Source: a virus
Reading direction: 5' to 3' (one strand)
DNA length: 22,040 bases
Virus genome (UHGV): UHGV-0332375
The notes under the pieces are model-generated. The model worked only from the letters and a program-made list of their open reading frames with translations. It was not told where the DNA came from and made no database searches. This document shows, one piece after another, positions 47 through 21,500 of the stretch. Within the stretch, counting starts at the first letter, position 1. The number at the start of each line of letters is the position of its first letter. The translations under genes were made by a program, and so were the position numbers.

Positions 47-340
47 TTAACTCTCGTTCAGCACACTAAACATCCCGTCACGCATCCCCTTAACTGACTG
101 TTTAACCTGATAAAGTTCCCTGCGCAGTTCCTGTACTTCGTTGTTATCCGCAAGCAGGATCAGGCAGCCTTCCGAGATCTTCACGGTAACGCCCGTGCCG
201 ATCTCAAATCCCGCTTCTCTCAGCCATTTGGCGCTGATTTTGATCACTGGTGTATCGCTGCGGTTGGGCAGATAACCCACGGTACAGCGACGCTGTGTTT
301 TGGAAATGGCGACTTCTGGCGTAATATCGCGTTCAGCCAT
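47..340 (-). CDS. SymE-family (type I toxin-like, AbrB/SpoVT-fold) protein
   Basis: 97-aa ORF; segment PVIKISAKWLREAGFEIGTGVTVKISEGCLILLA closely resembles the core of E. coli SymE (…[33 protein letters not shown]…) as recalled from memory; SD-like GAGG upstream of the ATG; followed by a terminator. Confidence 0.7.
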   Translation of the reverse strand: MAERDITPEVAISKTQRRCTVGYLPNRSDTPVIKISAKWLREAGFEIGTGVTVKISEGCLILLADNNEVQELRRELYQVKQSVKGMRDGMFSVLNES

Positions 341-421
341 GATTAACTACCTCTGTTAGTTGCTTATGGTGAGCGGTGGTTAAGGGTGGCAGCCCTTAAT
401 CATCGCGCTATCTCAATGTTA

Positions 422-814
422 TTACTGCGTTTTTCCTATCACATTATCTAAAATCTCAGAAACCAGCTTCTGCTTCGTTCGCGGTAACTGGCTGATGATC
501 TCGATCTGCTGTTCCAGCCGTGACGCCGGGCCGCGCTTGCTGCTTCTGCGTGGTGCTGGCAATCCGAGCAGTTCATCCAGCGACAGGTTCAGGATCTGTG
601 CCAGTTGTGGTAACAGCGCTGCCGAAACCTTGAGCTTCCCGCCTTCGTAATGCGCCATCGTCTGCTGTGCAATCCCTAACTGTTCTGCCAGTTGCGTCTG
701 TGTCAGTTGCTGTTCCTTACGTGCCTGTGCGATCCGTGCGCCAAGCTGCTTAAAAAACTGTTCGTCTTTGGTGTTCATGGCCTGCTGTAGCTGTCCTGTC
801 GTTAACACTGCCAT
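422..814 (-). CDS. XRE-family helix-turn-helix transcriptional regulator
   Basis: HTH signature LTQTQLAEQLGIAQQTMAHYEGGK. The ORF track gives 422-850 from a TTG codon; I prefer the ATG at 814-812, which has a GGGAG Shine-Dalgarno 7 nt upstream (130 aa). Divergent from the primase gene. Confidence 0.7.
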   Translation of the reverse strand: MAVLTTGQLQQAMNTKDEQFFKQLGARIAQARKEQQLTQTQLAEQLGIAQQTMAHYEGGKLKVSAALLPQLAQILNLSLDELLGLPAPRRSSKRGPASRLEQQIEIISQLPRTKQKLVSEILDNVIGKTQ

Positions 815-928: not shown

Positions 929-3751
929 ATGGCCCGCATCCCGGAAGCAGAGTTGCAGCACCTGAAAGCCGCCGTCTCCTTAGTCGCCGTGGTTCAGGCG
1001 CAGGGGCGACAACTGGTTAAGAAAGGGAAGGACTTCACCACGCTGTGTCCGTTCCATGACGAGAAAACGCCGTCCTGTGTGATCTCGCCCGAGAAAAACC
1101 TGTATCACTGCTTCGGCTGTAACGCAGGCGGATCGGTGCTGAACTGGGTGATGCAGACGGAAAAACTCAGCCTGCGTAAGGCAGCGGAACGTCTGAAAGC
1201 GGAGCTGGGCGACAATCCCGCCGTGGTGCCGCTGGTCACCAGGGATGAGCCGGAAATCTTCGCGGACGATGAAGCGGGCCGCCAGAAGCTGCTGGGCCGC
1301 GTGGTGGAGTTCTACCATCACACGCTGCTGAACGCGCCGGAAGCGGTGGCGTACCTGGAAAAGCGCCGTCTTAACCATCCTGAACTGGTCGCTGCCTTCA
1401 AACTCGGCTTCGCCAACCGTACCCTGCCTTACCGCCTGCCCGCCGTTAAATCACGGGCGGGCGAGAAGATCCGCGCCCGGCTTAAGGGTGTGGGTGTGCT
1501 GCGCGAGTCCGGGCATGAACACTTCACCGGATCGCTGGTTGTGCCGGTGATGGATCTGAACGGGCAGATCCGCGAGATGTACGGGCGCAAGATCACCGAC
1601 AGGTTGCGCAGCGGTACGGCGTTACACCTGTACCTGCCCGGTGCTCACGGCGGCGTGTGGAACGAGCAGGCGCTGATCGGGTCATCCGTGGTTATCCTGT
1701 GCGAATCGCTGATCGACGCCATGTCGTTCTGGGTCGCCGGAGTCCGTAACGTCACGGCGGCTTACGGGGTGAACGGCTTCACCGGTGAGATGCGGGCCGC
1801 ACTGCTGGCACACGGCGTTAAGCAGGTGCTGATCGCCTACGACAACGATCCGGCGGGCAATGAGGCAGCGGTGAAACTGGCTTCTTCCTTAGCCGCTGAC
1901 GGGATCGCCACGTTCCGCGTACTGTTCCCGGCGGGCATGGATGCGAACGGTTATCTGTGCCAGGTGGCAGAGCCGGAACAGGCGTTCAGTGTGTTGCTGG
2001 ACGGCGCGGTGCCCATGAGTGACCTGGCTGACGTGGCGAGTATCGCGCCGCAGGCCAGCGCGGAGCCTGCACACCTCACTTCGTTAGCCGCTGATGTTGC
2101 CGCGCTTCCGGCAGTTAGTGCGCCTGCGCCGGGCGTCAGCGTGGAAACCCTGGCTGATGGCGAACTGATGGTAGCCTTACCGGGCGAACGCTGGACAATC
2201 CGGGGCGTAAGCCGCAAAACCAACGCGGCGGCGATGAAGGTTAACGCGCAGGTGCTGGACACGGAAAGCGGCGTGGTGTTCGCCGATGCGGTGGATATGA
2301 TGAGCGCCCGCAGTCGCGGCGGTTATGCGCGGGCCGCAGCGGCAGAGCTTGGCCTGGCAGAAGGCGATCTGCGTCGCTCGCTGGGTAAGGTGCTGCTGGC
2401 GCTGGAGCACTGGCAGGCCGCACCGGAGCCCGCGAATGCCGCCCCGGAGATGACGCCGGAAGATCGGGAGGCAGCGCTTGAGTTGTTGCGCTCGCCGGAT
2501 CTTGCATCACGCATCGCGGCAGACATGGCGGCGTGTGGTGTGGTGGGTGAGTCCACCAACCTGACGGCGGCGTATCTGGCGGCGGTGTCGCGTAAGCTGG
2601 ACAGGCCGCTGGCGGTGCTGATCCAGTCATCGAGCGCGGCGGGCAAATCCTCGCTGATGGATGCGGTGCTCAACCTGATCCCGCCGGAAGAACGCTTACA
2701 GTACAGCGCCATGACCGGGCAGAGCCTGTTCTACCTCGGTGAAACCAACCTGCAACACAAGATCCTCGCCATCGCGGAAGAAGAAGGTGTGCGCCAGGCG
2801 GCGTATGCGCTCAAGCTGTTGCAGTCGGACGGCGAGTTAACGATCGCGTCAACGGGTAAGGACGACGCCAGCGGTAACCTGGTCACGAAACAGTACACGG
2901 TAAAAGGCCCGGTGATGCTGATGCTGACCACCACCGCCATCGACGTTGACGAGGAGTTACTCAACCGTTGCCTGGTGCTGACGGTGAACGAGTCGCGGGA
3001 GCAGACGGAAGCGATCCATGCGGCGCAGCGTTACGCGCAGACGCTGGAAGGACTGCTGGCGGCTAACGAAAAAAGTTACATCACTCAGCTTCACCAGAAC
3101 GCGCAGCGGCTGTTACGTCCGCTCAACGTGGTGAACCCGTTCGCGTCACAGCTCACGTTCATGAGCGACAAAACCCGCACCCGGCGCGACCACATGAAAT
3201 ACCTGACGCTGATCCAGACGATCGCCCTGCTGCACCAGTATCAGCGGGAGATCAAACGTGTGGAGCATCGCGGGCAGGTGGTGGAGTACATCGAGGTGAC
3301 GCGGGAAGACATCGCGCTGGCGAACCGCCTGGCACATGAAATACTCGGGCGCACCCTGGACGAAATGCCGCCGCAGACCAGAAAGCTGTTGCTGCTGATC
3401 CAGACAATGGTCGGTGAACTGGCAGCGGCGCAGCACTGCAAACCCGGCGAGGTACGCTTCACGCGCCGGGAGATCCGCGACTTCACGCAGTGGAGCGACA
3501 ACCAGCTTAAAGTCCACTGTATGCGGCTGGCGGAAATGGAATACCTGCTGATCCACGGCGGCAGCCGGGGTCACCTGCTGCAATACGAGTTGCTGTGGGA
3601 CGGCAGCGGCGACGGCTCGCACCTGTGCGGCCTGATCGAACCGGAGGACAGCCCGGTGTATGACTCCGGCAAGTTGGGGCAGAACGCGGACAGGTTGCCC
3701 TTAAGTTGCCCACATGTTGGGGCTAAGTTGGGGCTAAGTTGGGGGCGGTAA
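929..3751 (+). CDS. DNA primase, DnaG-like (CHC2 zinc finger, TOPRIM) fused to a large C-terminal domain with a P-loop-like motif
   Basis: 940-aa ORF. N-terminus CPFHDEKTPSC…YHCFGCNAGGS matches the DnaG zinc-binding domain (E. coli DnaG CCPFHNEKTPSF…YHCFGCGAHG); TOPRIM-like ILCESLIDAMS and AYDNDPAGNEAA; Walker-A-like SSSAAGKSS in the C-terminal half. The last ~30 codons overlap an iteron-like repeat array, so the exact C-terminus is uncertain. Confidence 0.85.
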   Translation: MARIPEAELQHLKAAVSLVAVVQAQGRQLVKKGKDFTTLCPFHDEKTPSCVISPEKNLYHCFGCNAGGSVLNWVMQTEKLSLRKAAERLKAELGDNPAVVPLVTRDEPEIFADDEAGRQKLLGRVVEFYHHTLLNAPEAVAYLEKRRLNHPELVAAFKLGFANRTLPYRLPAVKSRAGEKIRARLKGVGVLRESGHEHFTGSLVVPVMDLNGQIREMYGRKITDRLRSGTALHLYLPGAHGGVWNEQALIGSSVVILCESLIDAMSFWVAGVRNVTAAYGVNGFTGEMRAALLAHGVKQVLIAYDNDPAGNEAAVKLASSLAADGIATFRVLFPAGMDANGYLCQVAEPEQAFSVLLDGAVPMSDLADVASIAPQASAEPAHLTSLAADVAALPAVSAPAPGVSVETLADGELMVALPGERWTIRGVSRKTNAAAMKVNAQVLDTESGVVFADAVDMMSARSRGGYARAAAAELGLAEGDLRRSLGKVLLALEHWQAAPEPANAAPEMTPEDREAALELLRSPDLASRIAADMAACGVVGESTNLTAAYLAAVSRKLDRPLAVLIQSSSAAGKSSLMDAVLNLIPPEERLQYSAMTGQSLFYLGETNLQHKILAIAEEEGVRQAAYALKLLQSDGELTIASTGKDDASGNLVTKQYTVKGPVMLMLTTTAIDVDEELLNRCLVLTVNESREQTEAIHAAQRYAQTLEGLLAANEKSYITQLHQNAQRLLRPLNVVNPFASQLTFMSDKTRTRRDHMKYLTLIQTIALLHQYQREIKRVEHRGQVVEYIEVTREDIALANRLAHEILGRTLDEMPPQTRKLLLLIQTMVGELAAAQHCKPGEVRFTRREIRDFTQWSDNQLKVHCMRLAEMEYLLIHGGSRGHLLQYELLWDGSGDGSHLCGLIEPEDSPVYDSGKLGQNADRLPLSCPHVGAKLGLSWGR

Positions 3752-4126: not shown

Positions 4127-5266
4127 ATGATTTTAAATTTTGGTGCGAAAAATTTCTTCAGCTTTAAGGAAGGATTTGATATTTCATTTGAGCTTGGTAA
4201 TACTTGCCCAAAAGAAATTTCAAATGGGAAAGGCGTAACGAATATCCTTTGTATCAAAGGGGCTAATGGTTCAGGTAAAACGAATATACTAAAGGCACTA
4301 AGTTTTTTAACTAGTTTTATCTCTAATTCTTTTGATCTTAAACCAAATGCATATTTGCAGTTTGATCCATATTTTAATAGTAAATCTGAATCTGATTTCT
4401 ATATAACATTTGTATTAGATAATGTTATTTACAGATATGAAGCGTCAATGACTGACGTTGAGGTTAAACGAGAAGCTCTTTATAGAAAAAGTAAACGAGA
4501 AACTAAAGTTATTGAACGTATCAACGATGCAGTTGTGTTCACAATTAAAGAGTTTGATGAATTAAAAAGTATTAAAATGCGAAAAAATGTATCCCTTTTT
4601 AGCATGGCAATGCAATATGATGTTGATTGTGTTAGAGCAATTCATGAAAGTTTTACTAGGGTTATATCAAACGTCAGATATTCAGGTTTATTGACAGAAG
4701 TGCACGAATTAGAATATTTAAACGAATTTTATCATAATAACCCAGATGTATTCGATTTTTGTAAAAAAATTATAATGAAATTCGACCCCTCTATTCATGA
4801 TATTTATATAGCTAAAAATATTAATGATGACGGGAAAGTTACTTACAGGCCTTGGTTTGAGTTTGAGTTTGATGGTGAAACTGATATTTTAAGTTTTAAC
4901 CTGCAATCAAGTGGAACAAAATCATTATATAAGCAGTTAGGAAGTTATAAAGCTGTCCTGGCATTAGGTGGAACGCTTGTACTTGATGAGTTTGACATAA
5001 ATCTTCATCCTCATATACTTCCACATTTATTAGGTATTTTTATTGATGAGGAGCAAAACCCATATAATGCTCAGTTAATATTTACAACTCATAATACTGA
5101 GATTCTGGATTTTTTAGGAAAACATCGAACATATTTAGTCAACAAAAATAAGACTGAAAGTTATTGTTATCGACTTGATGAAATCCCTAGCGATATTTTA
5201 AGGAATGATCGCCCCATAACACCAGCCTATAATCAAGGTAAGATTGGTGGAGTTCCAAATTTATGA
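4127..5266 (+). CDS. ABC/AAA_21-family ATPase (abortive-infection / defence-type ATPase)
   Basis: 379 aa; Walker A GANGSGKTNILKA near residue 45, Walker B LVLDEFDINLHP, TTHN motif near the C-terminus; N-terminal MILNFGAKNFFSFKE typical of AAA_15/AAA_21 ATPases; strongly AT-rich codon usage; candidate promoter TTGACC-N17-TAGGAT about 4065-4093. Confidence 0.8.
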   Translation: MILNFGAKNFFSFKEGFDISFELGNTCPKEISNGKGVTNILCIKGANGSGKTNILKALSFLTSFISNSFDLKPNAYLQFDPYFNSKSESDFYITFVLDNVIYRYEASMTDVEVKREALYRKSKRETKVIERINDAVVFTIKEFDELKSIKMRKNVSLFSMAMQYDVDCVRAIHESFTRVISNVRYSGLLTEVHELEYLNEFYHNNPDVFDFCKKIIMKFDPSIHDIYIAKNINDDGKVTYRPWFEFEFDGETDILSFNLQSSGTKSLYKQLGSYKAVLALGGTLVLDEFDINLHPHILPHLLGIFIDEEQNPYNAQLIFTTHNTEILDFLGKHRTYLVNKNKTESYCYRLDEIPSDILRNDRPITPAYNQGKIGGVPNL

Positions 5267-5766
5267 GCAGAAAGTTTGGAAACTCCAATGCTCAAAAATT
5301 TCTAAAGGGATTTGAGGGGTTAGCAAGTCTTGACTCTGCAGAGTGTAATTTGGCTAGGAGATGTAAATTTAATTTCTCTTATTTTATAAGTAACCAAAAA
5401 GCTTGTGGTAAATTGTCGGATTGGGATAAAGATACAATATGTGTTTTTTTTGACAAGTTAATTGATTACTCTTCGAAATCGTTAAGTGATTTACAAATGA
5501 TCGGTTTGGGAAAGAATCGAAAAAAATTACTTTCTATTTATGATTCTTTCCCCAAAAATAGTTTGTTTGAACAACCTAAAAACATTCCTCATCAGGCTCG
5601 GTGGGGACGAATTAGATTAGATCAGAATAAAAGACTGATTGGGTTTGTTATTCCTGATGATTATCATGGACAAAGACATGAAGGCACTGGAATGTATTAT
5701 GATAAAAATACATTTTATGTTGTTTTTATTGATAATAACCATGGTTTTTATCTTCTTAATAAATAG
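5263..5766 (+). CDS. Hypothetical 167-aa protein, translationally coupled partner of the AAA_21 ATPase
   Basis: Start ATG overlaps the ATPase stop (ATGA at 5263-5266); same AT-rich composition; no motif I can assign to a known effector family (no HNH, TOPRIM, TM segments). Confidence 0.65.
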   Translation: MSRKFGNSNAQKFLKGFEGLASLDSAECNLARRCKFNFSYFISNQKACGKLSDWDKDTICVFFDKLIDYSSKSLSDLQMIGLGKNRKKLLSIYDSFPKNSLFEQPKNIPHQARWGRIRLDQNKRLIGFVIPDDYHGQRHEGTGMYYDKNTFYVVFIDNNHGFYLLNK

Positions 5767-5952: not shown

Positions 5953-6295
5953 ATGCGTAAAGCCCATTTTACTGAGCATCAGATCATCGCTGTGATTAAG
6001 TCGGTTGAAGCCGGACGAACTGTCAAGGATGTTTGCCGCGAGACCGGTTTCTCTGAAGCGACCTACTACAATTGGAAACCTAAATACGGTGGTATGGAAG
6101 CCTTTGATATTAAAAAGATAAAGGATTTTGAGGACGAGAACAGGCGTCTCAAACAGATGTTTGCTGACATATCAGCCTTGAGAACAGGGCATTGAGACGT
6201 TATCGGAAAAAGCTTTGAAACCAGTCTTTAAGCGTGAGCTGGTCACTCATCTGATAACGACGTTCGGGCTTAGTATCCGTCAGGCCTGCCCCGGA
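5953..6295 (+). mobile_element. Truncated IS3-family insertion sequence remnant (orfA plus start of orfB)
   Basis: ORF 5953-6195 has the HTH_Tnp_1 pattern (FTEHQIIAVIKSVEAGRTVKDVCRETGFSEATYYNWKPKYGGME, similar to IS407-group OrfA); a shifted frame after an A-rich slippery-like stretch (GGAAAAAG ~6205) reads …LKPVFKRELVTHLITTFGLSIRQAC…, typical of an OrfB N-terminus, then breaks off about 6295 where repeat copy C begins. Higher GC than the flanking cargo. Confidence 0.6.
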
Positions 6296-6428: not shown

Positions 6429-7427
6429 TCAAGGCGTCGTTGCTTGAGTTGGATTCAGTTCAGAAACATTTGCAGCTTCTGCTTGCTGGACTATAGCTGT
6501 ACGGCGTTTCCGCTTTTTCTTCGGTTTTGGGCTAGTCATCTCTTTAATCCCCAGCATTTCCATGACTTCTGGCTGAGGTGGATAGCAAATACCTATGTCA
6601 GCAGGAGGTGTTGAGTGTCGATGTTTTTCAACTAACGATTTTTCATTATTCCAACGTTTGCAGAGGAAAATAATTCCTTCGAAGTAACGTTCATCTCTTT
6701 TCTGTGCCTCGAGAAGAATGAAAAATGCTCTTCTTTCTAGCCCTTCTAAAAATCCACAAAAGCATTCTCTGAGAAGTTTCTCGTCAAGATCATTGGCCTT
6801 AATTCCTTGAGCTAAAAACTCAAAGAAATTAAGAAGGTACACCAACCCGTTAATCCCTTTCACAACTTCATCTGGGACTTTTGAGTTTTTGAATTTTGGA
6901 TGGTCCGGGTCATCTCTCCAAACACATAGCTCTTTTGGAACATGGCGATTACCTCTCCATAAGTGCGTGAAATTACGCAAATGCGTTTGGTATTCAGTAC
7001 ATGTCCTAGTGCTAAGAACAACATTTAAAGTATGTTTTCTTCGATCACTTGCAGCGGAGGTGATGAATTGGATCCACCACCCCATACCAGCGATTGAACC
7101 GGCAACAATGATTGAAAGAGCTGTTTGGTAGGCATCATTATAGCGAAGTACGTAATATGCCAGCAGGAAAAGTACCCAAACCACACCTCCGAAAAGAGGT
7201 AGTAGTGGGTTTGTATCTGGAAATTTGTTACTGATTTTGTAGACGCTATATAGTGTTGTAAATGTTGCAAATGTAATCATTAACCCAGCATCGAACACTG
7301 CGTAAAACCAAGATGCAGTCTGTACTGCGTTTAAATTAAGTAAAATTCTCGTAATTATGAGACTGATCAAGATGCCAACCAGGACACCAAGCAGTGTTTT
7401 AGTTTTACTTTTTATCCATCGGTACAT
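6429..7427 (-). CDS. Hypothetical multi-pass membrane protein with C-terminal soluble domain and basic tail
   Basis: 332 aa; about four hydrophobic segments in the first ~120 residues (LLGVLVGILISLIITRILL, LMITFATFTTLYSVY, LFGGVVWVLFLLAYYVL, IIVAGSIAGMGWWIQFI); C-terminal KPKKKRKRR tract; AT-rich; lies just outside the prophage int-proximal end. Confidence 0.65.
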   Translation of the reverse strand: MYRWIKSKTKTLLGVLVGILISLIITRILLNLNAVQTASWFYAVFDAGLMITFATFTTLYSVYKISNKFPDTNPLLPLFGGVVWVLFLLAYYVLRYNDAYQTALSIIVAGSIAGMGWWIQFITSAASDRRKHTLNVVLSTRTCTEYQTHLRNFTHLWRGNRHVPKELCVWRDDPDHPKFKNSKVPDEVVKGINGLVYLLNFFEFLAQGIKANDLDEKLLRECFCGFLEGLERRAFFILLEAQKRDERYFEGIIFLCKRWNNEKSLVEKHRHSTPPADIGICYPPQPEVMEMLGIKEMTSPKPKKKRKRRTAIVQQAEAANVSELNPTQATTP

Positions 7428-7808: not shown

Positions 7809-8993
7809 TTATCCTGTACGGATTTCTCCATGCGGTACCACTACCCAGTTTGTATGATTTTTAGTGTATATTTTAGTCGATTTTGCATCGCTATGTGCCA
7901 TTCTTCCTTGTGGATCAATACCTTGTTTATCAAATAAGTGAGCAGCCAAAGCCCTTATCTCATGAAATGTAGGCCTTTCTTCCATTGCTAAGTGATTGCA
8001 CAGTCCGAGTTTGTCACGTACAGCAGAGAATGAGCGGCTTATGTAGTCCGGGGCCACTTGAGTAGGGTGCGAAACCTCTTTGCTACGTTTTACATTCCGC
8101 TTTGGAATTCTGTGGACAACGTAAGGACTGGCTACATTATCCCGACTGTTATCAATGATGCGTTTTAGTTCATCACCGATAGGGATTGCAACATGTGACG
8201 CCTCCTTTTTCTGTACCTTTTGCCGATGAATATATAGCATTCCGTATATTCCATTTTGTTGTTGCTCGAACCAGATACATCCACATATGCCGTCTTTAGG
8301 TTCGCGAATTGAGTAACGGATCCGCGATACTTCTAACCGTGCATGTGTCGTTTGTAAGGCTAAGTCCATTGCAGTTCTTAACCATGGTGCCGCGGCGCGG
8401 CGTATAGCCATGAAATGCTCGAATGATAGGCGTTGTCTTTTCTTCTCATCAGTCCTACGTTTTTTTTTCCTCGTTGCGGGGTTATCAAGCATTAGTGATT
8501 CGTCGACCGCATATGAGAACAACTTTTTAAGGAAGCCAACTTTTCTGTTCTGCACATTTGCGGATGAATTGTCATGATATTTGTTGATATAGGCGTTAAC
8601 GTGTTCAAGTTCGATATCGCATGCCGGAATATTTAAGAAAAAATCTTTTACGCGTAGAGCGTCATTTTTCCAGTCATCTAAGGTGCTCTGGGAAGGACGT
8701 TCGTCTTCGACAATTCGGGCCATTATGTGATCAACATGTTCAGCAAATGGTTTTGCTTCTCCGGTAACCCCGCCAGATTCTCTAATAAGATTATCCACTG
8801 ATGGGTATAATTCTGGTCGCATCCTCAGGTTGTACTCTCTGGCGATTGCAACGGCTATTGTCCGATCCTTACCTATATTTTTCTTTTTTCCGGTAATAAG
8901 TGTGAATTTATAAACACCTCGATCTTTATCAAAAACCAGATAATCAGGAAGATGTCTGTATTCTTTTTTACGTGGCCTTGCCGCCATGGTCAT
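7809..8993 (-). CDS. int: Tyrosine recombinase (phage integrase, lambda Int family)
   Basis: 394 aa; C-terminal catalytic region with PTFHEIRALAAHLF … GRMAHSDAKSTKIYTKNH; N-terminal basic arm-binding-like region; overlaps the xis stop. Confidence 0.9.
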   Translation of the reverse strand: MTMAARPRKKEYRHLPDYLVFDKDRGVYKFTLITGKKKNIGKDRTIAVAIAREYNLRMRPELYPSVDNLIRESGGVTGEAKPFAEHVDHIMARIVEDERPSQSTLDDWKNDALRVKDFFLNIPACDIELEHVNAYINKYHDNSSANVQNRKVGFLKKLFSYAVDESLMLDNPATRKKKRRTDEKKRQRLSFEHFMAIRRAAAPWLRTAMDLALQTTHARLEVSRIRYSIREPKDGICGCIWFEQQQNGIYGMLYIHRQKVQKKEASHVAIPIGDELKRIIDNSRDNVASPYVVHRIPKRNVKRSKEVSHPTQVAPDYISRSFSAVRDKLGLCNHLAMEERPTFHEIRALAAHLFDKQGIDPQGRMAHSDAKSTKIYTKNHTNWVVVPHGEIRTG

Positions 8994-9199
8994 CCCTCAT
9001 TTATTAACTTGCGAACAGCTTGACTAACCATTGAGTCGACTCCCCATTTTTCTGTTTCGCAGACAAAAACAGAACCGTCCACGATACGCCCCATGAGCAG
9101 ACCGTTCTCGACCCAGCGTTTTATCGTTCGGTTGTCAGGAATTGAGCCATCAGAGAATTCACGGCGTCCCCATTGGCTCGCTTTCATTAGTTTTGCCAT
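8990..9199 (-). CDS. xis: Excisionase (lambda Xis-like)
   Basis: MKASQWGRREFSDGSIPDNRTIKRWVENGLL resembles lambda Xis (LTLQEWNARQRRPRSLETVRRWVRE…); start chosen at the ATG at 9199 with GGAGA SD (track ORF 8990-9244 has an upstream extension). Confidence 0.7.
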   Translation of the reverse strand: MAKLMKASQWGRREFSDGSIPDNRTIKRWVENGLLMGRIVDGSVFVCETEKWGVDSMVSQAVRKLINEG

Positions 9200-9260
9200 G
9201 GCTGTTTCTCCACTTAACCCGCTGCACACGGGCAGTAATATCAAATTTCAGTCCTGATAA

Positions 9261-9476
9261 TTAATTTTGTTCTCTGGTTGCTACCTGTTTAATTGGCCTG
9301 ATGCTGTCCAGGAGCAGTCGGCGGCGCGTATTTTCTGCAAAGTGGCGGCGTCCGGTTTCTTTGTGGTAAAACTCGTTTTTTCCGACGACCCACATCCGCT
9401 TTGTCAGGTGCAGTTTTTTTACCTGCGGACCGTTTCGGGTAATAACAATTCCTGTATGAGTTTTTATCACGCTCAT
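9261..9476 (-). CDS. Hypothetical small prophage protein (position of yfdT-like gene)
   Basis: 71-aa ORF in operon-like tight spacing with neighbours; no motif recognised. Confidence 0.45.
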   Translation of the reverse strand: MSVIKTHTGIVITRNGPQVKKLHLTKRMWVVGKNEFYHKETGRRHFAENTRRRLLLDSIRPIKQVATREQN

Positions 9477-9835
9477 TTCTTAGTCTCCGGTGCTTTCGGC
9501 ATTACTGCCCAGTGAGTGATATTGACGTTTTCAAGGTCCCCGACCTGAAATGTCCACTGCCATTCTCCAGTTTCTTTTTGCCCCCATGTGTACCAGAGAG
9601 AACGCCAGCCAATCAGCCAGCCTTCTCCATTAGCATCAAATAACAGAACACTTTCATTTGCTGGCGGTAGTTCAGCTGACACTGGTATTACTTTGTTTTC
9701 CAGTGCTGCACATTTAGCTTCAAGCGTATCGAATTTACGTACCAGGTATTCAGCATCCGTTTCATTCACTTTCAGATCTCGCGGTACACATTTCCCGCGA
9801 AGAAACCCTTCCATTTCGAAAAGATTCATGCGCAT
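9473..9835 (-). CDS. Hypothetical prophage protein (YfdS-like by size and position)
   Basis: 120-aa ORF overlapping neighbours by 4 and 10 bp; C-terminal ITHWAVMP motif. Confidence 0.55.
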   Translation of the reverse strand: MRMNLFEMEGFLRGKCVPRDLKVNETDAEYLVRKFDTLEAKCAALENKVIPVSAELPPANESVLLFDANGEGWLIGWRSLWYTWGQKETGEWQWTFQVGDLENVNITHWAVMPKAPETKK

Positions 9836-10362
9836 TTGCGTAACTCCGATAACTCGTTGAAGCGTTCTATAAACATCCCATAGGCATGGCCTGGCGACAG
9901 TGGAATAACTTTGAACATCTCTGTTGCCGGGATACCTTCCAGTACAGGCCAGAAAGAGCCATCATCAAGCCCGAGATCGCGGCGTTCGGTTGCCAGCATG
10001 ATGAGATCGGCATATTTCACAGGCGTGCTCATAACCGTGGGTAACCCGTATTTCTCACGGATTACGGCGTCTATTTTTTCTTCCATCCGTTTATAGTCAG
10101 GAAGAAGGCGTTTCAGCGGCGCGGGGATGTCCTGGCAATACGCTTCTGTTGCATCATGCATTAACGCTTCAAAAGCAAATTCCTGCGGCACCAGCTGGCT
10201 GCAAAGCACCGCATGTTGGGCGACACTGTAGAAGTGTGAAAGATGACCGGCAAAGCGACAGATATTTGAAAGGGAAACCGCGATATCGTTAATCACGATG
10301 TCGTCTTTATTTATCCTGTCATAATAAAAATGCTTCCCGGAAAAAGTTTTAATAAATGACAT
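9826..10362 (-). CDS. HD-domain phosphohydrolase (YfdR-like 5'-deoxynucleotidase)
   Basis: His…HD motif (SVAQHAVLCSQL … ALMHDATEAY); start set to the ATG at 10362 with GGAGAA SD, giving 178 aa, the size I recall for E. coli CPS-53 YfdR. Confidence 0.7.
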   Translation of the reverse strand: MSFIKTFSGKHFYYDRINKDDIVINDIAVSLSNICRFAGHLSHFYSVAQHAVLCSQLVPQEFAFEALMHDATEAYCQDIPAPLKRLLPDYKRMEEKIDAVIREKYGLPTVMSTPVKYADLIMLATERRDLGLDDGSFWPVLEGIPATEMFKVIPLSPGHAYGMFIERFNELSELRKCA

Positions 10363-10489
10363 TTTGTTCTCCGCGTATATGTGCTGCACCACGCTGAATT
10401 CTGGTAAAAGGAAGCCCTCACCATCCGGCGATTATTGAGTCAATTACGTTTCCATAAATGCCCCCGCAGGGGCATTTGCAGTAATGAAA

Positions 10490-11314
10490 TCAGGCGGTGA
10501 AAGTACCAATAAAGGTTTCTACTTTGCTGTCTTTGAATTTCTCAACAAGCAGATCACGAAATTCGTTAGCCATTTCTTCCTGCACCGCCTCCAGCTGAAT
10601 AATGCGCAGAACCAGTACAGGACGATCGCCAGTGATAATGCTGAGGCGTAATTTAAATGGACGTTCTTTCAGACCTTCAAACGGAACGCATTTAAATTCA
10701 AATGCCACTGGCATAATATCTTTGGTTTTCGCTTCGACAGACTCCATCAGGGAGCGTTTGCCGCTGAAGTCATTATCTTCAAAATCAGCGGTCTGGTTTG
10801 CTTCAATCGTGATTTTACGGACAGCCGCAGCCGCTTTTGTTGCCTGAATAGCGTCACCATTAGCATCAAAGCCCACAAGGTAGTCGGCCCAGTCTTCAAT
10901 CCATTCTGCCAGTGACTTCTGGGAATGACGCTCGCCATTAACAGACAACAGAGCAGAGAACGGTGCTGTCTTTTTCAGTTTGAGAGTGGCGGTGTTATCT
11001 GCGTGACCTGGTTCATCAATAGTACCCAGGTTAAGCACACTGACGGCTCGCATATTATCGGCATCGATAAAGCAGCGGGTGCCTTCATCTGCAAGATCTT
11101 TAGAATAACGGGTAAAGTCATCGATGCTGGCAGTGGAAAGCGCACCACGGAAACGGAAGCGATTTAAATTAAATTTTTCCAGATCATGAATGCGGAAATT
11201 CTCAGGCAATGCCACAGCATCGGCACCAATCTTACTGATAATTTCATTAACACCCTGAGCAGAAATAAGAGCATGGATTTGATTAATTGCGGTTGCGTCT
11301 AAGTTCTGAGACAT
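10490..11314 (-). CDS. Hypothetical prophage protein, YfdQ-like (DUF2303-type)
   Basis: 274-aa ORF, uniform coding composition; size and position upstream of the HD protein match the yfdQ-yfdR arrangement of CPS-53 as I recall it. Confidence 0.6.
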
Positions 11315-11379
11315 AATAAGTCCTCACTATATAAAGATATTCAGTGATGAGATAAATAATCAGTTAATTAAGAACGATA

Positions 11380-11742
11380 TTAATGACCTGCTGCGCGAAG
11401 TTTTCCGTCAGGTTCACCGGCAAGAGTCAGTAATTGTCCCTGGTCTTCCTGCAGAATAGTCAGGCGACCACCGCGATTGACATACATCGGCGTTTCGGTG
11501 GTGTCTTCTTCAGAAATTTTCCCGCGGTTAGTCGGGCGAACATATGAGAGTTTGTGTTTGATTTTCACACGGTTCTCATCAAACGGTTCGATTTCCAGGT
11601 TGAGCGAGACCTTACCTTTGGTTTTCGTGTTCATCACACCGGAAGCGACTTCACTGAGAACAGCGCCGATTTTGGTTTCAAATACGCCGCCGTCCAGCTC
11701 CCCGATAAATGCCTGCACATCAGTACTGCGTTCGCTAGCCAT
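11380..11742 (-). CDS. Hypothetical prophage protein (YfdP-like by size and position)
   Basis: Track ORF 11380-11973 has a 77-codon N-terminal extension running through two strong hairpins; the ATG at 11742 has an AGGAG SD 7 nt upstream, giving 120 aa (MASERSTDVQAF…). Confidence 0.55.
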   Translation of the reverse strand: MASERSTDVQAFIGELDGGVFETKIGAVLSEVASGVMNTKTKGKVSLNLEIEPFDENRVKIKHKLSYVRPTNRGKISEEDTTETPMYVNRGGRLTILQEDQGQLLTLAGEPDGKLRAAGH

Positions 11743-11790
11743 TTTGCTGCTCCTCATCATATCGACCCTGCAAGGTCGGTTGGTTTCTCC

Positions 11791-11925
11791 ACAAAACAGA
11801 GAAGAACACCTGCGGTGACTGCCGCCCGGATGGATTGGGTTATGAGCCCGTCGTCCGGTGATGCTCTTCTCTGTTTTGTAAAAAGAGCGGTACCAGCCGG
11901 AAGCAAGGGTACAAACTGGTACCGC
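11791..11925 (-). promoter_or_regulatory. Structured leader RNA: two perfect inverted repeats upstream of the early-left operon
   Basis: IR1 ACAAAACAGAGAAGA (11791-11805) / TCTTCTCTGTTTTGT (11865-11879), 15-bp perfect stem plus CACC/GGTG extension around a GC-rich 46-nt loop; IR2 GCGGTACCAG (11887-11896) / CTGGTACCGC (11916-11925). Confidence 0.4.
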
Positions 11926-12329
11926 CAAAGCAGTGGCTGTTGTGGTGGGGTTGTCACTCAGGCGTATGGTCAACCTGACAATCCGGTGTCCTCAACGGGG
12001 AAAGAGTAACCCCGCCATACTTACCGCCGCGCCATTTCGCGGATTACCACAACGCTGAGAGCACTTAGCCAGTTACGGCACCACACTTTGTCGCGGCTCC
12101 ATAAATGCCCTCATCGTTGCACCCTGGTCTCTTCCCAGGCGTCAAACCGAATCGCCACGCTGGTTAGGCGTCTTATCAGCATCATCATTGACTTGCACAT
12201 TCCGGCTACCTGGTTTGTTTGCCCGAGCAAGGAGTGGATTGTCCCCTTTAACGTCCCCAGACCGCTAACGACGCATGTGCCATACGCCGTGTTACAACCA
12301 AATTTTGTTAGTACCTTGTTTGTTTGTCT

Positions 12330-12395
12330 GGAAAGAAAGATAAAATGAAGTTGCGCATTATGCAAGTGTTTTTGTTGCGAGATATGCAATTTAAA
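12330..12395 (-). promoter_or_regulatory. Leftward early promoter/operator region (pL/OL-like)
   Basis: Two 15-bp sites TTGCGCATTATGCAA (12351-12365) and TTGCGAGATATGCAA (12375-12389), form TTGC-N7-GCAA, same family as a site in the cI-cro intergenic region; minus-strand -35 TTGCAT and -10 TATCTT candidates. Confidence 0.45.
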
Positions 12396-12397
12396 GG

Positions 12398-12424
12398 GTA
12401 ATGAAAAGCCACCTTTGGGTGGCT
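12398..12424 (-). terminator. Putative terminator downstream of the repressor gene
   Basis: Stem AGCCACC / GGTGGCT with TTTG loop (12407-12424), followed on the minus strand by TTTCATTAC. Confidence 0.45.
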
Positions 12425-12444
12425 AATTGATGAGGAGGTAAGGG

Positions 12445-13137
12445 TTAATTGTGTCGCTTAAGGGTTTGTGACTGGCTGATTAAGACCTTTCCAAAGACCA
12501 TAAACCGGTGTTCATTTTCGCTGGTAATTCCCCATTCACGGTAAATCTGGTTATCAGAAATCACCAGTAGTTTGTCAGGTATCATTTGCAGTCGTTTGAC
12601 ATAAATTTTATCATCAAAACCAAATACATAGATACCATCTCCATCAAACTGATTGATACTGACATCAACGAAGATGAGATCTCCTGGCTCAATGGTTGGA
12701 CACATACTGTCCCCACGAACGTTGATAACTTTAATGTGATTGGCTGGCCGTCCGCCAAACATCGATACAGCATTATCAGTTCTGTATTCAATGGCATGAA
12801 TCACATCAATGACATCACCGCCCTGGATAAGGCCATTTCCCGCACTGGCACTGACATCCAGCATTTCAATACGGAATACATCCTTCACCTGCGCAACATC
12901 CTCACTAATACTGTTTTTACATACAGTATTACTTTTGACGTCTGAGGTAAAGAGATCAGCAATATCAACACCTAAGCTCCTGGCAATATTACTCAGGGCT
13001 TGTTCAGTGAATTGTTTCTGCTTACCTGTTTCCAGGCGTGAGATATTCGCCGCATCCACTCCTATTGCTTCAGCGAGATCGGCGATTTTCATGTTCTTCG
13101 CCTGGCGAAGTTGTCTGACTCGGTTTCCTATGTTCAT
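12445..13137 (-). CDS. cI: Phage CI-type repressor (N-terminal HTH, C-terminal S24 LexA-like peptidase)
   Basis: 230 aa; HTH IADLAEAIGVDAANISRLETGKQ; autocleavage domain with VRGDSMCPTIEPGDLIFVD; divergent from a cro-like gene. Confidence 0.9.
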   Translation of the reverse strand: MNIGNRVRQLRQAKNMKIADLAEAIGVDAANISRLETGKQKQFTEQALSNIARSLGVDIADLFTSDVKSNTVCKNSISEDVAQVKDVFRIEMLDVSASAGNGLIQGGDVIDVIHAIEYRTDNAVSMFGGRPANHIKVINVRGDSMCPTIEPGDLIFVDVSINQFDGDGIYVFGFDDKIYVKRLQMIPDKLLVISDNQIYREWGITSENEHRFMVFGKVLISQSQTLKRHN

Positions 13138-13234
13138 GCGTTTATTACATTTCTTTATTGCGCGTTAAGCAAATCAACTTGCGCAAAATATTTGCGTGAA
13201 ATAATATGCTCATCACGCAATATGTGGAGGTCAT
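13138..13234. promoter_or_regulatory. Right operator/promoter region (OR, pRM/pR-like) between cI and cro
   Basis: TTGCGCGTTAAGCAA (13158-13172) matches the OL-type site; palindrome TTGCGCAA (13179-13186); inverted repeat ATATTTGCGTG / CACGCAATAT (13188-13229); candidate pR -35 TTGCGC and -10 ATAATA; GGAGG SD before cro. Confidence 0.55.
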
Positions 13235-13495
13235 ATGCAATCACCATTACGGAATGTGCGTAAGGCGCACGGATTTACTTTGCAGCATGTTGCTGCTGGC
13301 GTTCAGGTCAATCCAGCGACGCTGAGTCGTATTGAAAGACTGGAACAAATTCCATCTATCGATCTTGCAGAACGTCTGGCCAATTTTTTTAAGGGTGAAA
13401 TCAGCGAAATGCAGATTCTTTATCCGGCACGTTTTCAATCTAGCCAAAACCAGAATGGGTTTAAACCACAGGAACAGGAGGTAAGCCGTGGGTAA
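13235..13495 (+). CDS. cro: Cro-like HTH regulator
   Basis: 86 aa, divergent from cI; HTH LQHVAAGVQVNPATLSRIERLEQ. Confidence 0.7.
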   Translation: MQSPLRNVRKAHGFTLQHVAAGVQVNPATLSRIERLEQIPSIDLAERLANFFKGEISEMQILYPARFQSSQNQNGFKPQEQEVSRG

Positions 13496-14045
13496 TCATC
13501 ACTGGAAAGTGGAAAAACAGCCTGAGTGGTACGTGAAAGCTGTCAGAAAAACTATCGCGGCGTTGCCGGGGGGTTACGCTGAAGCTGCTGAGTGGCTGGA
13601 TGTAACAGAGAACGCATTATTTAACCGCCTTCGTGCCGATGGCGATCAGATTTTCCCGCTGGGATGGGCAATGATTTTACAACGTGCTGGTGGCACTCAC
13701 TTCATTGCCGACGCTGTGGCGCAGTCTGCAAATGGCGTCTTTGTGTCTCTTCCTGACGTCGAGGATGTGGACAATGCCGATATTAACCAGCGTTTACTGG
13801 AAGTCATTGAACAGATCGGCAGTTATTCAAAACAGATTCGTTCGGCAATCGAAGACGGTGTAGTGGAACCGCATGAGAAGACAGCAATTAACGACGAGCT
13901 GTACCTCTCAATTTCGAAGCTGCAGGAGCATGCAGCACTTGTCTACAAAATTTTTTGCGTTTCAGAAAGTAATGACGCCCGCGAGTGTGCAGCTCCGGGC
14001 GTCGTGGCGTCGATTGCTTCTGGTTGTGGAGAAACTAACGCATGA
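13488..14045 (+). CDS. cII: Phage regulatory protein CII (CP76 / phage 186 CII family)
   Basis: 185 aa; …[38 protein letters not shown]… resembles phage 186 CII as recalled (…LRNKLNPEQPHQFTPPELWLLTDLTEDSTLVDGFLAQ…); overlaps the cro stop. Confidence 0.6.
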
Positions 14046-14380
14046 ACAGTTTAACAACACACTACCGTCGCTCGCAACTGATTGCGCTTCCTGTACCGGG
14101 TGGAAAAGCGAAGGTGGAGTATTGCTATGCAGTAAATGTACCAGGTGACAGGGAAATTGTAACCCACAGCTTTGCTGAGTGGGCTGTGGGGGATTTCAAC
14201 CGGCAGAAGGAGACAGTCCTTTGCGACAAGTTAACCGCTGGTTCAAAGATCACTACGGAGTGCCCGTCAGAGTCATTCGTTGGGAGCCGGAAACACAACG
14301 GGTTATCTACCTCCGTGAAGGCTATGAGCATGAGTGCTTCAGCCCGCTCGAACAGTTTCGTCGTAAATTCAGGGAAATAG
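14042..14380 (+). CDS. Hypothetical ORF (low confidence; 3' half conflicts with the overlapping small ORF)
   Basis: 112-aa ORF whose ATG overlaps the cII stop (ATGA), but residues after ~14220 overlap a better-supported ORF in another frame. Confidence 0.25.
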
Positions 14381-14400
14381 AGGTCGGTCATGAGCACTAA
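14221..14400 (+). CDS. Small hypothetical protein, translationally coupled to the replication gene
   Basis: Track ORF 14179-14400 (GTG start); I favour the TTG at 14221 preceded 8 nt upstream by AAGGAG (59 aa); stop TAA overlaps the ATG of the replication initiator. Confidence 0.45.
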
Positions 14401-15331
14401 ATTAACCGGCTATGTATGGGATGGTTGCGCAGCGTCAGGCATGAAATTATCCAGCGTGGCAATTATGGCCCGCCTGGCTGATTTCAGTAATGACGAAGGT
14501 GTGTGCTGGCCATCAATTGAAACTATTGCCCGTCAGATTGGCGCGGGGATGAGTACCGTCAGAACGGCTATCGCACGGCTGGAAGCAGAAGGCTGGTTAA
14601 CGCGTAAGGCGCGTCGCCAGGGTAACCGCAATGCGTCGAATGTTTATCAGCTTAACGTTGCGAAGCTTCAGGCAGCGGCATTTTCTCAACTGTCAGATTC
14701 TGACCCGTCAAAATCTGACGCATCAAAATCTGACACGTCAAAATTTGATGCGTCGAAATCTGGCAAAAAAGCGGGTTTTCACCCGTCAGAATCTGGCGGG
14801 GATCCGTCAGTAAAATCAAAACATGATCCGTCAGATAAAAAACCTTCTCGTCCGGACGCTTCGCAACCGGACACGCAGACGGCTGAACAGGATTTTTTAA
14901 CTCGCCATCCTGATGCGGTTGTATTCAGCCCTAAAAAGCGCCAGTGGGGAACGCAGGATGATTTGACCTGCGCACAGTGGCTCTGGAAAAAAATCATTGC
15001 CCTGTACGAGCAGGCCGCCGAATGTGACGGCGAGGTGGTTCGTCCCAAAGAACCGAACTGGACAGCATGGGCAAACGAAATTCGCCTGATGTGTGTGCAG
15101 GATGGTCGTACTCACAAACAAATCTGCGAGATGTACAGCCGCGTCAGCCGCGATCCGTTCTGGTGCCGTAACGTGCTCAGCCCGTCGAAGTTGCGGGAAA
15201 AATGGGATGAGCTTTCCCTGCGCTTATCGCCGTCCGTCAGCACGCACACAGAAAAACGTGAAGACCCGTACTTCAAAGCCAGTTACGACAACGTGGACTA
15301 CAGCCAGATCCCGGCAGGATTCAGGGGGTGA
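14390..15331 (+). CDS. Replication initiator protein (lambda O-like replisome organiser) with iterons inside the coding region
   Basis: 313 aa; N-terminal winged-helix-like segment (IETIARQIGAGMSTVRTAIARLEAEGWL); central low-complexity SDSDPSKSDASKSDTSKFDASKSGKK encoded by tandem DNA iterons, as in lambda O. Confidence 0.8.
   Translation: MSTKLTGYVWDGCAASGMKLSSVAIMARLADFSNDEGVCWPSIETIARQIGAGMSTVRTAIARLEAEGWLTRKARRQGNRNASNVYQLNVAKLQAAAFSQLSDSDPSKSDASKSDTSKFDASKSGKKAGFHPSESGGDPSVKSKHDPSDKKPSRPDASQPDTQTAEQDFLTRHPDAVVFSPKKRQWGTQDDLTCAQWLWKKIIALYEQAAECDGEVVRPKEPNWTAWANEIRLMCVQDGRTHKQICEMYSRVSRDPFWCRNVLSPSKLREKWDELSLRLSPSVSTHTEKREDPYFKASYDNVDYSQIPAGFRG
14690..14835. repeat. Phage replication origin: tandem ~15-bp iterons (CGTCAAAATCTGAC family) plus A-rich tract
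   Basis: Copies CCGTCAAAATCTGAC (14705-14719), GCATCAAAATCTGAC (14720-14734), ACGTCAAAATTTGAT (14735-14749), GCGTCGAAATCTGGC (14750-14764), degenerate copies CTGTCAGATTCTGAC upstream and CCGTCAGAATCTGGC, CCGTCAGTAAAATCA, CCGTCAGATAAAAAA downstream; adjacent GGCAAAAAAGCGGG. Confidence 0.7.
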
Positions 15332-15333
15332 TC

Positions 15334-15822
15334 ATGAGTCTTTTGAATGACGTTCAGAAATTCATTGAAGCCCATCCGGGCTGTACTTCCGGAGACATTG
15401 CGGATGCTTTTGCAGGTTACTCACGGCAGCGCGTTCTGCAGTCAGCAAGCAAGTTACGTCAGAGTGGGCGTGTGGCTCACCGTTGTGAAGGAGATACACG
15501 CAGACATTTCCCGCGCCTGACTGAGAGAGCGCAGGAGCCGGAACCACAACCTGTTCGTGAAACCAGACCTGTGCGCAATTTCTATGTCGGCACTAACGAT
15601 CCCCGGGTGATTTTGTGCCTGACCCGCCAGGCTGAAGAGCTGGAGTCCAGGGGCTTATACCGTCGTGCTGCAACGGTGTGGATGGTGGCATTCCGTGAAA
15701 GTCACTCCCAGCCAGAACGAAACAACTTTCTGGCGCGTCGAGAGCGGTGCTTACGGAAAAGCAGCAAGCGCGCTGTATCGGGTGATGAATGGTATCTGTC
15801 AGGGAATTACGTGGGGGCTTAA
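15334..15822 (+). CDS. PerC-family transcriptional regulator-like protein
   Basis: AEELESRGLYRRAATVWMVAF resembles the PerC/Pch motif as I recall it; start set to the ATG at 15334 just after the upstream stop (track 15328, GTG). Confidence 0.5.
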   Translation: MSLLNDVQKFIEAHPGCTSGDIADAFAGYSRQRVLQSASKLRQSGRVAHRCEGDTRRHFPRLTERAQEPEPQPVRETRPVRNFYVGTNDPRVILCLTRQAEELESRGLYRRAATVWMVAFRESHSQPERNNFLARRERCLRKSSKRAVSGDEWYLSGNYVGA

Positions 15823-16148
15823 TGACGACGTTAACTCAGTGTCAGCAGCAGGTGCTGGATATGCTGATTTCTTACCAGCAAGAACGTGGCTTTCCGCCAA
15901 CCAATCAGGAGGTGGCAACCATGCTGGGATACCGTTCAGTGAATGCAGCGGTGGAGCATCTTCGCGCACTGGAGAAAAAAGGCGTCATCACGATAAAGCG
16001 TGGTGTGGCCCGGGGGATCACGCTTCATACCGCGGTGAAGGACGACGACAGCGAGGCGGTCGGGATTATCCGCTCACTGCTTGCCGGTGAGGAAAACGCA
16101 AGGCTGCGTGCAACTCACTGGTTACATGAGAGAGGCCTGAAAGTATGA
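15822..16148 (+). CDS. LexA N-terminal DNA-binding-domain protein (no peptidase domain)
   Basis: TLTQCQQQVLDMLISYQQERGFPPTNQEVATMLGYRSVNAAVEHLRALEKKGVITIKRGVARGITL parallels LexA residues 1-70 ([55 protein letters not shown]…); ATG at 15822 overlaps the upstream stop (TAATG); 108 aa. Confidence 0.7.
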   Translation: MTTLTQCQQQVLDMLISYQQERGFPPTNQEVATMLGYRSVNAAVEHLRALEKKGVITIKRGVARGITLHTAVKDDDSEAVGIIRSLLAGEENARLRATHWLHERGLKV

Positions 16149-16535
16149 AGCTGATCCTGCCTTTCCCGCCCAGCGTGAACACGTACTGGCGACACCCCAA
16201 CAAAGGGGCGTTTGCTGGTAAGAGCCTGATAAGCGCGGCGGGGCGAAAATTCCAGAGCGCGGCGTGCGCAGCAATAGTTGAGCAGTTACGTCGTCTGCCG
16301 AAACCAACGTCGGCACCTGCTTCAGTGGAGATCGTGTTGTTTCCTTCCGGATAACCGGAGCCGCGATCTGGACAACTATAACAAGGCGCTGTTTGACGCC
16401 CTGACCCACGCGGGTGTGTGGGAAGACGACAGTCAGGTGAAAAGAATGCTGGTGGAGTGGGGACCGGTTATCCCGGAAGGGAAGGTCGAGATCACTATCA
16501 GTAAGTACGAGAAAACGGCGGGTGCAGCCGCCTGA
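16145..16535 (+). pseudogene. rusA: Holliday-junction resolvase RusA, interrupted by a frameshift
   Basis: ORF 16145-16354 aligns with the RusA N-terminal half; the C-terminal half (DNRSRDLDNYNKALFDALTHAGVWEDD… vs RusA [27 protein letters not shown]…) continues in another frame to 16535; the frames meet at CCTTCC (~16340-16350), consistent with a 1-bp indel. Confidence 0.7.
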
Positions 16536-16554
16536 GCAAAAGGAGAAACGAAGT

Positions 16555-17364: not shown

Positions 17365-17365
17365 G

Positions 17366-18361: not shown

Positions 18362-18374
18362 GTGGAGAACGAGC

Positions 18375-19127: not shown

Positions 19128-19329
19128 GTGATCTTCGCCGAAAATGGTGACATGATGCTTGCAATTTTCAAAAAACATGGATAAGATTTTCTCAACGATG
19201 GGCTTTATGTATCTGCTGTTGATAACCTTCAAGAACTCGCCATTGAGCGGGTTTTTTATTGTGTAAAAACAGAATGACGGTATTAATTAGTAATATAATT
19301 ATTCGACCATACAACTAGGGGTCGAAAAA

Positions 19330-20115: not shown

Positions 20116-20132
20116 CATTTTCTTTTTTATTG

Positions 20133-20163
20133 AAAGCCGCCAAATAATTGGCGGCTTTTTTAT
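20133..20163 (+). terminator. Rho-independent terminator after the moron gene
   Basis: Perfect 10-bp stem AAGCCGCCAA / TTGGCGGCTT with a 4-nt loop, followed by TTTTTTTATTT. Confidence 0.8.
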
Positions 20164-20204
20164 TTCACAGTACCCGCAAATATCGCGAGGTGAGAGATGA
20201 CGAA

Positions 20205-20531: not shown

Positions 20532-20534
20532 TTT

Positions 20535-21469: not shown

Positions 21470-21472
21470 AGC

Positions 21473-21490
21473 TGCCCATATCGATGGGCA
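21473..21490. other. Palindromic stem-loop between convergent Rz and bor genes
   Basis: TGCCCAT-ATCG-ATGGGCA; no adjacent U-run, so terminator function is uncertain. Confidence 0.3.
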
Positions 21491-21500
21491 ACTCATGCAA

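Follow-up and report, generated by a model that had tools for sequence, protein, structure and literature searches.

A SymE-family gene of an Rhs-linked mobile element with a predicted SymR-like antisense RNA gene and an upstream RstR-like repressor gene

When a gene for a SymE-family protein lies directly downstream of a gene for an XRE-type helix-turn-helix (HTH) regulator, do the two form a type II toxin–antitoxin or regulator–effector pair, or does the locus belong with the canonical symE/symR module of Escherichia coli K-12? Such an arrangement is found at the left end of the window, i.e., the whole 22,040-nt stretch of DNA analyzed here. The SymE-like ORF (positions 47–340) and the XRE gene (422–814) are both located on the minus strand, and the 81-bp gap between them (341–421) is exactly as described in the initial annotation of this DNA. 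The RefSeq limits of both ORFs in E. coli are the same as in the window, and the products are named there "SymE family type I addiction module toxin" and "helix-turn-helix domain-containing protein", respectively. The initial annotation also placed a hairpin in the gap, and considered the locus to be closer to a type II or regulator–effector pair than to canonical symER.

The SymE-like ORF starts with ATG, is preceded by a Shine-Dalgarno sequence (AGAGG, 354–350) located 9 nt before the start codon, and encodes a protein of 97 aa (RefSeq WP_001401851.1). A Pfam search revealed that this protein matches PF08845 (SymE_toxin) with 54 bits against a gathering score of 29 (E-value, 1.8 × 10−14), and it shares 44% identity with K-12 SymE over 68 aa, so that its initial assignment to the SymE family was borne out. 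The score against the NCBIfam SymE equivalog NF010128 (46.7 bits) is below the cut-off of 132 bits. Since the PF08845 threshold is passed and that of NF010128 is not, the profile scores identify the 97-aa protein as a member of the SymE family and not as an orthologue of K-12 SymE. In total, 246 homologues were found, nearly all of them with PF08845. A profile search of PDB sequences returned nothing relevant, none of the PADLOC models matches the protein, and no match was found in the phage collection searched. The AlphaFold2 monomer obtained with a 13-sequence alignment is poor (pLDDT 47); its order of secondary structure elements (strand-strand-helix-strand-strand, then two helices) is compatible with an AbrB/MazE-like swapped-hairpin fold followed by C-terminal helices.

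The gap upstream of this gene was found to resemble the gene for SymR, the antisense RNA of K-12 symE. The Rfam model RF01809 (symR) matches positions 335–409 of the plus strand over its entire length (model positions 1–77 of 77; E-value, 3.3 × 10−8), with a score of 46 bits that is below the gathering score of 61; a scan of positions 1–1200 missed this match through filtering, and it was obtained from a 131-nt scan with laxer filters. Matches of the same kind, likewise sub-threshold (38–50 bits), are present at the same position in six sister loci, each antisense across the XRE–SymE gap, and a sub-threshold match was also obtained in Salmonella. In addition, alignment of the K-12 symE leader with the gap revealed clear homology from the hairpin through the start codon, and the hairpin can be aligned with the 3′ stem-loop of K-12 SymR at each base position.

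The secondary structure was examined in an alignment of 13 sequences, including K-12 SymR. In the consensus structure, which consists of stem-loop 1 (about 336–370) and stem-loop 2 (373–406) on the plus strand, 90% of the cells are paired, and stem-loop 2 has 15 pairs, 10 of which change on both sides. The observed covariation was not reached in any of 500 column shuffles, and shifted registers collapse. Folding of positions 335–412 gave −35.8 kcal/mol for the plus strand (z-score, −5.1; none of 200 shuffles as good), compared with −19.5 kcal/mol (z-score, −1.7) for the minus strand, and G-U predominates in several pairs, only on the plus strand. Because of these G-U pairs and the much better fold of the plus strand, the structure is a property of the antisense RNA and not of the mRNA or of a DNA palindrome. 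The hairpin noticed initially (TTAAGGG-N6-CCCTTAA) is thus real and beyond chance, as indicated by the fold, the shuffles and the covariation, with its position being 380–399 instead of 381–400; it constitutes the upper part of stem-loop 2 and the core of a 14 + 14 nt inverted repeat with arms at 373–386 and 393–406.

A covariance model of our own, R1, was built from the 13-sequence alignment. It scores positions 335–409 of the window at 91 bits; wherever the 5′ end of a SymE-like gene is conserved, it detects one such element, which always extends 6 nt into the coding sequence. Outside the training set, R1 matches were obtained in the Salmonella locus L050, in both units of the Lonsdalea plasmid, and in the loci L013, L006 and L010. 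Altogether, the sequence evidence that the gap encodes a full-length SymR homologue is strong, and the antisense RNA suggested in the initial annotation for about positions 300–420 of the plus strand is thereby well supported. The SymR-like RNA, as predicted (335–409), overlaps the first 6 nt of the SymE coding sequence, covers the start codon and the Shine-Dalgarno sequence, and would be perfectly complementary to this start codon, Shine-Dalgarno sequence and leader.

A putative promoter of the SymR-like RNA can be read from the plus strand at 300–327, embedded in SymE codons 5–14. It comprises a −35 element (TTGGAA, 300–305), a 16-nt spacer and a −10 element (TAATAT, 322–327), with a predicted start at position 335. 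The TAATAT lies 7 nt before position 335; K-12 has the hexamer TAGAAT at the corresponding position, likewise 7 nt upstream of the annotated SymR 5′ end. This promoter agrees with the consensus at 8 of 12 positions only, was not called by the scanner and is argued from homology; a sigma-70 consensus scan of positions 1–1100 detected no promoter either for the antisense RNA or for an XRE–SymE transcript. Comparison of 15 distinct SymE-like genes revealed that, at sites with the same residue, the codon is identical in 95% of cases in codons 1–15 and in 61–69% elsewhere, the latter range including a block of equal amino acid conservation. Such an excess of synonymous conservation fits an overlapping promoter; the nucleotide conservation of codons 1–15 could instead reflect recombination between cassette flanks.

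As for the transcription of the SymE-like gene itself, no LexA-like site (CTGT-N8-ACAG with at most one mismatch) is present in positions 1–1000, and in the window the 3′ end of the XRE gene occupies the site, immediately 5′ of the leader, at which K-12 has its LexA box. Since no recognizable promoter or terminator lies between the XRE gene and the SymE-like gene, read-through from the former would be the simplest source of SymE mRNA. Directly 3′ of the SymE stop codon, a bidirectional intrinsic terminator (3–40; 15-nt arms, 93% complementary, with flanking A and T runs) is found, which is shared with a converging Rhs immunity gene just left of the window.

The XRE gene encodes a repressor of the Cro/cI type (130 aa) with HTH_3, HTH_19 and HTH_31 matches. 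Its best NCBIfam match is the RstR family (NF041951), which spans residues 24–129 of the protein and positions 3–103 of 108 of the model, with a score (68.2 bits) below the cut-off of 80; XRE alleles occupying the same position in sister elements match the RstR model over their full length and above the cut-off (81–147 bits). A primase-helicase gene with CHC2 zinc finger, Toprim and P-loop motifs (929–3751, plus strand), which belongs to the backbone of the element, is divergent from the XRE gene. The control region between the two (815–928) contains the palindrome ACTCTG-N3-CAGAGT (867–881) and two TTAGGGTA repeats, and each XRE allele has a distinct palindrome of its own in this gap. Given the RstR matches, the allele-specific palindromes and the existence of element backbones that carry the XRE gene without SymE, the XRE protein is best read as the repressor of the element, with SymE/SymR being an accessory at the end of its operon.

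Two further features of this region were observed. XRE alleles have been swapped between otherwise near-identical elements: the window and the locus L004 share 96% identity in SymE and 89% in the primase, and 38% in XRE. In addition, the divergent regions of the window, L004, L016, L050 and L053, with their allele-specific palindromes, resemble the immunity regions of temperate phages.

From the features that were computed, namely membership in the SymE family, the order of the genes and their distribution, the homology to SymR, and the strand-specific structure with its covariation, we infer transcription, read-through, toxicity and biological role as follows. We consider it reasonably probable that a SymE/SymR-type module is carried on the repressor operon of a mobile element, and that antisense silencing of a harmful DNA-binding protein takes place there. 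The XRE protein would be an RstR-like repressor of a primase-helicase/XerC-type recombinase element residing in arrays of Rhs toxin cassettes, and would most likely act at the divergent region 815–928. Its transcript would probably continue through the 81-bp gap into the SymE-like gene, and this read-through would take the place of the LexA-controlled symE promoter of K-12. On the opposite strand, a SymR-like RNA of about 75 nt would be made from the promoter within SymE codons 5–14 and, by analogy with K-12 SymR, may block translation and destabilize the mRNA. The SymE-like protein would be a DNA-binding protein of the AbrB/MazE type that is presumably harmful when over-made. If kept silent as long as the element is present, it would suit a stabilizing (addiction-like) or stress-released role, and the addiction or defense role for the mobile element put forward initially is plausible.

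The element to which the module belongs was recognized in several genera. In E. coli, E. ruysiae, Salmonella, Erwinia and Lonsdalea, a four-gene module is repeatedly found, with a recombinase gene and the primase gene on one strand and, divergent from them, XRE and SymE on the other. Sister copies have a gene for a XerC-type recombinase after the primase gene; in the window copy, this gene has been lost. Among 5,426 complete E. coli genomes, the full XRE–SymE module was found in 45, and fragments of it in 218; the E. coli strains S10 and 23AR1183 carry the locus with 100% identity. The order of the unit is the same everywhere it was examined (about 15 loci from several genera): a short fragment of an Rhs core end, a variable C-terminal toxin and its immunity gene converge on SymE, upstream of which lies XRE; the primase and XerC genes are divergent from XRE, and the next Rhs fragment comes after them. 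Such units form tandem arrays (L002, L017 and L042–L050), and two circular records, one from Shigella (L001; NZ_CP055112; 8,758 bp) and the other from Lonsdalea populi (L053; NZ_CP072857; 11,289 bp), consist only of such units. The Lonsdalea circle carries endonuclease and HNH toxins with immunity genes, as well as a RelE/DinJ pair. On Enterobacter plasmid pJBIWA003_2 (L054), where DinJ/RelE is present too, and on a Providencia plasmid (L055), XRE–primase–XerC genes are interleaved with C-terminal/immunity cassettes of CdiA (haemagglutinin-repeat) proteins, with no SymE gene.

Arrays in an Enterobacteriaceae metagenome-assembled genome (UBA5654; L027 and L031) and in Yokenella (L017) contain up to six SymE-like copies, many of them 5′-truncated, each with an Rhs core fragment. 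Every Yokenella copy keeps the same 35-codon XRE remnant, the breakpoint of which corresponds to window position 529. A search of the XRE-fragment junction in the Yokenella arrays for an att-like site revealed only this single inherited breakpoint.

A tentative reading, which we regard as possible, extends to the element as a whole. According to it, the XRE–SymR–SymE arm would be the regulatory and maintenance module of an undescribed plasmid-like integrative element with a DnaG-type primase-helicase and a XerC-type tyrosine recombinase, which would carry promoterless Rhs/CdiA toxin–immunity cassettes and build "orphan" arrays by repeated integration. Each cassette would be preceded by a short conserved core stretch, and CdiA cassettes would be found in relatives of the element. 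If so, the element would be a physical vehicle for the displacement of Rhs C-termini. This reading is based on the constant unit order in the about 15 loci, on the two circular records and on the CdiA-linked versions found on plasmids. A full-text literature search found no paper describing a primase/recombinase element with Rhs cassettes, and the repeated occurrence of such an element beside Rhs and CdiA cassettes may be worth more than the toxin question.

Another interpretation is the one toward which the initial annotation leaned, namely that the locus is a true type II or hybrid type I/II toxin–antitoxin system, in which the C-terminal region of the XRE protein binds and neutralizes the SymE-like protein and the operon is autoregulated. 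It has been proposed from gene neighborhoods (PMC1891008) and for Serratia loci (PMC7725324), and is in line with the co-oriented, antitoxin-first layout, with the N-terminal HTH, to which the HipB, MqsA and PezA antitoxin models give weak matches, and with a C-terminal segment (KRGP...I..LP...Q) that is conserved across divergent XRE alleles. This C-terminal region, however, belongs to the RstR-family profile itself, as the full-length matches demonstrate, and the antisense RNA gene fills the whole 81-bp gap. Furthermore, a complete XRE gene is absent beside 8 of the 15 distinct intact SymE-like genes (six have none, and two have a 35-codon remnant), XRE–primase–XerC backbones without SymE occur in the CdiA arrays of the Enterobacter and Providencia plasmids, and 96% identical SymE proteins are paired with 38% identical XRE proteins in the window and L004. 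The co-occurrence and co-variation of toxin and antitoxin as a pair, characteristic of type II systems, is not seen at these loci. By these three distributional features, the sequences argue against an obligate type II pair, and we regard the type II or hybrid interpretation as unlikely. Since a SymR-like antisense gene, including the hairpin, has been kept, the locus is no departure from symER: the SymR homologue at 335–409 of the plus strand, with the promoter geometry of K-12, does not support the contrary claim. Of the initial interpretation, the SymE family, the XRE neighbor and the mobile-element context stand, and the shift toward type II falls away.

A different question is whether the SymE-like protein is a toxin at all. 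It might be a DNA-binding accessory of a nucleoid-associated or regulatory kind, the level of which is simply tuned by the antisense RNA; for example, it may silence or organize neighboring Rhs cassettes or the replication and recombination genes of the element. K-12 SymE, named "nucleoid-associated protein SymE" in RefSeq, is now regarded, according to a review that cites Thompson et al. 2022 (PMC11894785), as a protein that binds DNA non-specifically and condenses the nucleoid, and not as an RNase; the SymE family derives from AbrB/MazE transcription factors (PMC1891008), and nearly all Rhs C-terminal/immunity cassettes have a SymE-like gene at their boundary. Against this, the tight multi-layer repression typical of toxins appears to be retained, with a SymR homologue over the Shine-Dalgarno sequence and AUG, and many of the SymE-like copies are decayed or truncated, as would be expected if the gene were dispensable or harmful; nor is any sequence-specific target evident. 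A purely accessory, harmless protein is thus quite unlikely in our opinion.

That the hairpin is an XRE operator, i.e., a protein-binding DNA palindrome, or a terminator or attenuator, instead of part of an RNA gene, is highly improbable and was rejected: it is a near-perfect inverted repeat within an intergenic gap, and TTAGGG-like motifs also occur in the XRE–primase region, but its compensatory substitutions keep the pairing and not the sequence, its G-U pairs are confined to one strand, no T-run is present 3′ of it on either strand, it aligns with the K-12 SymR stem-loop throughout, and the TTAAGGG stem is common to two loci whose XRE alleles are only 38% identical and whose own palindromes differ.

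In the rest of the window, the primase gene precedes an AbiL-like ATPase pair, an IS fragment and a DUF4760 gene, after which a prophage begins. The first of these (4127–5766, plus strand) comprises an AAA_21 ATPase, which shows strong similarity to the PADLOC AbiLi model (216 bits), and an overlapping 167-aa ORF without family match; the pair is likely an AbiL-type anti-phage system that occupies the place of XerC in the sister elements. The IS3-type transposase fragment (HTH_Tnp_1) is located at 5953–6195, and the gene for the DUF4760 protein (332 aa) at 6429–7427 on the minus strand. The remaining part (7809–22040) is a lambdoid or CPS-53-like prophage; its first gene encodes an integrase (7809–8993, minus strand), and DUF551 and YfdR-like genes come next. 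Inside one prophage ORF (12445–13137), a CTGT-N8-ACAG site without mismatch is located at 12911–12926.

The locus can be compared with several known systems. With the hok/sok-type modules it would share the principle that a harmful gene of a mobile element is silenced by a short cis-antisense RNA over the translation start; the protein families are unrelated, a membrane peptide in those modules as opposed to a DNA-binding protein with a probable AbrB fold here. RstR of the CTX phage (NF041951) is similar to the XRE protein in being a small HTH repressor of the same full-length architecture, encoded divergently from the replication gene of the element, but it has no SymE-like gene downstream, and the allele in the window (68 bits) is below the family cut-off of 80.

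An experimental precedent is IsrA (RF01385), a cis-antisense RNA that was detected in Salmonella and whose expression is inverse to that of its target STM0294.1n (PMC2330248). It resembles the predicted SymR-like RNA in being cis-antisense, and in its location in an Rhs/T6SS island; it differs in being longer (423 nt) and in starting inside the coding sequence. In Salmonella, the isrA model matches wholly inside and antisense to a SymE-family coding sequence (122 bits), and it is also antisense inside SymE-family coding sequences in other genera; STM0294.1n was taken to be a SymE-like gene on the evidence of the Rfam isrA model and of another Salmonella genome, not of the LT2 sequence. In the window, the isrA match at 177–295 of the plus strand reaches 33 bits, below the gathering score of 51, compared with 51–122 bits in sister loci. 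The reverse complement of the isrA consensus encodes a W..EAGF.TG..VTVKI core, and isrA matches mark SymE-like genes in the window (177–295, plus strand), in L050 (7072–7200) and in L016, L017, L027 and L042.

A second Rfam family, RF02627 (Ssr1; 654 nt), matches positions 1–310 of the plus strand and sequence to the left of the window (E-value, 5 × 10−86). Its model corresponds to the sequence predicted to be intergenic between an Rhs gene and SF0269 in S. flexneri 301, and the 3′ half of the model runs antisense to a SymE-like gene that had not been annotated. The real Ssr1 RNA of about 150 nt has its mapped 5′ end (model position 131) to the left of the window, in sequence that is an Rhs immunity gene in E. 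coli. The isrA and Ssr1 families are thus largely the antisense strand of SymE-family coding sequences, which affects how matches to them are to be read.

The closest counterpart is the K-12 symE/symR locus itself, in which the protein family, a homologous 5′ leader, the two stem-loops of the antisense RNA (RF01809), its overlap with the Shine-Dalgarno sequence and 6 nt of the coding sequence, and the position of the −10 element are the same as in the window. The two loci differ in that the window protein is only 44% identical to K-12 SymE and below the equivalog cut-off (46.7 vs. 132 bits), that the window has no LexA box, with an XRE gene replacing the SOS promoter, and that the locus lies in an Rhs-linked mobile element, whereas the K-12 locus is found beside hsd/mcr.

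The HTH–SymE arrangement has been known in silico since 2007. Kawano, Aravind and Storz (2007; PMC1891008) noted that SymE-family genes often occur in predicted operons with Cro/cI-type HTH genes, displayed neighborhoods that include a DnaG-primase/MCM-like helicase gene as well as RHS and haemagglutinin genes (their Fig. 7A), and took control by a transcription factor and control by an sRNA to be alternatives. Hampton et al. (2020; PMC7725324) described duplicated Serratia "SymE/XRE-HTH" loci, in which both genes are expressed, as a possible hybrid type I/II system. These loci, which are known from predictions and expression, have in common with the present one a Cro/cI-type HTH gene followed by SymE, beside a DnaG-type primase-helicase, with toxin islands and duplicated copies. 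There, HTH and sRNA control were set out as alternatives, or no antisense partner was identified, whereas here a predicted SymR homologue lies inside the HTH–SymE gap. The addition made by this locus is therefore modest, a repressor gene and an antisense RNA gene combined in one locus. It suggests that "SymE family type I addiction module toxin" genes located next to an HTH gene, for which a type II or hybrid nature has been under discussion, keep a recognizable SymR gene, and both layers of control can therefore be tested with defined coordinates.
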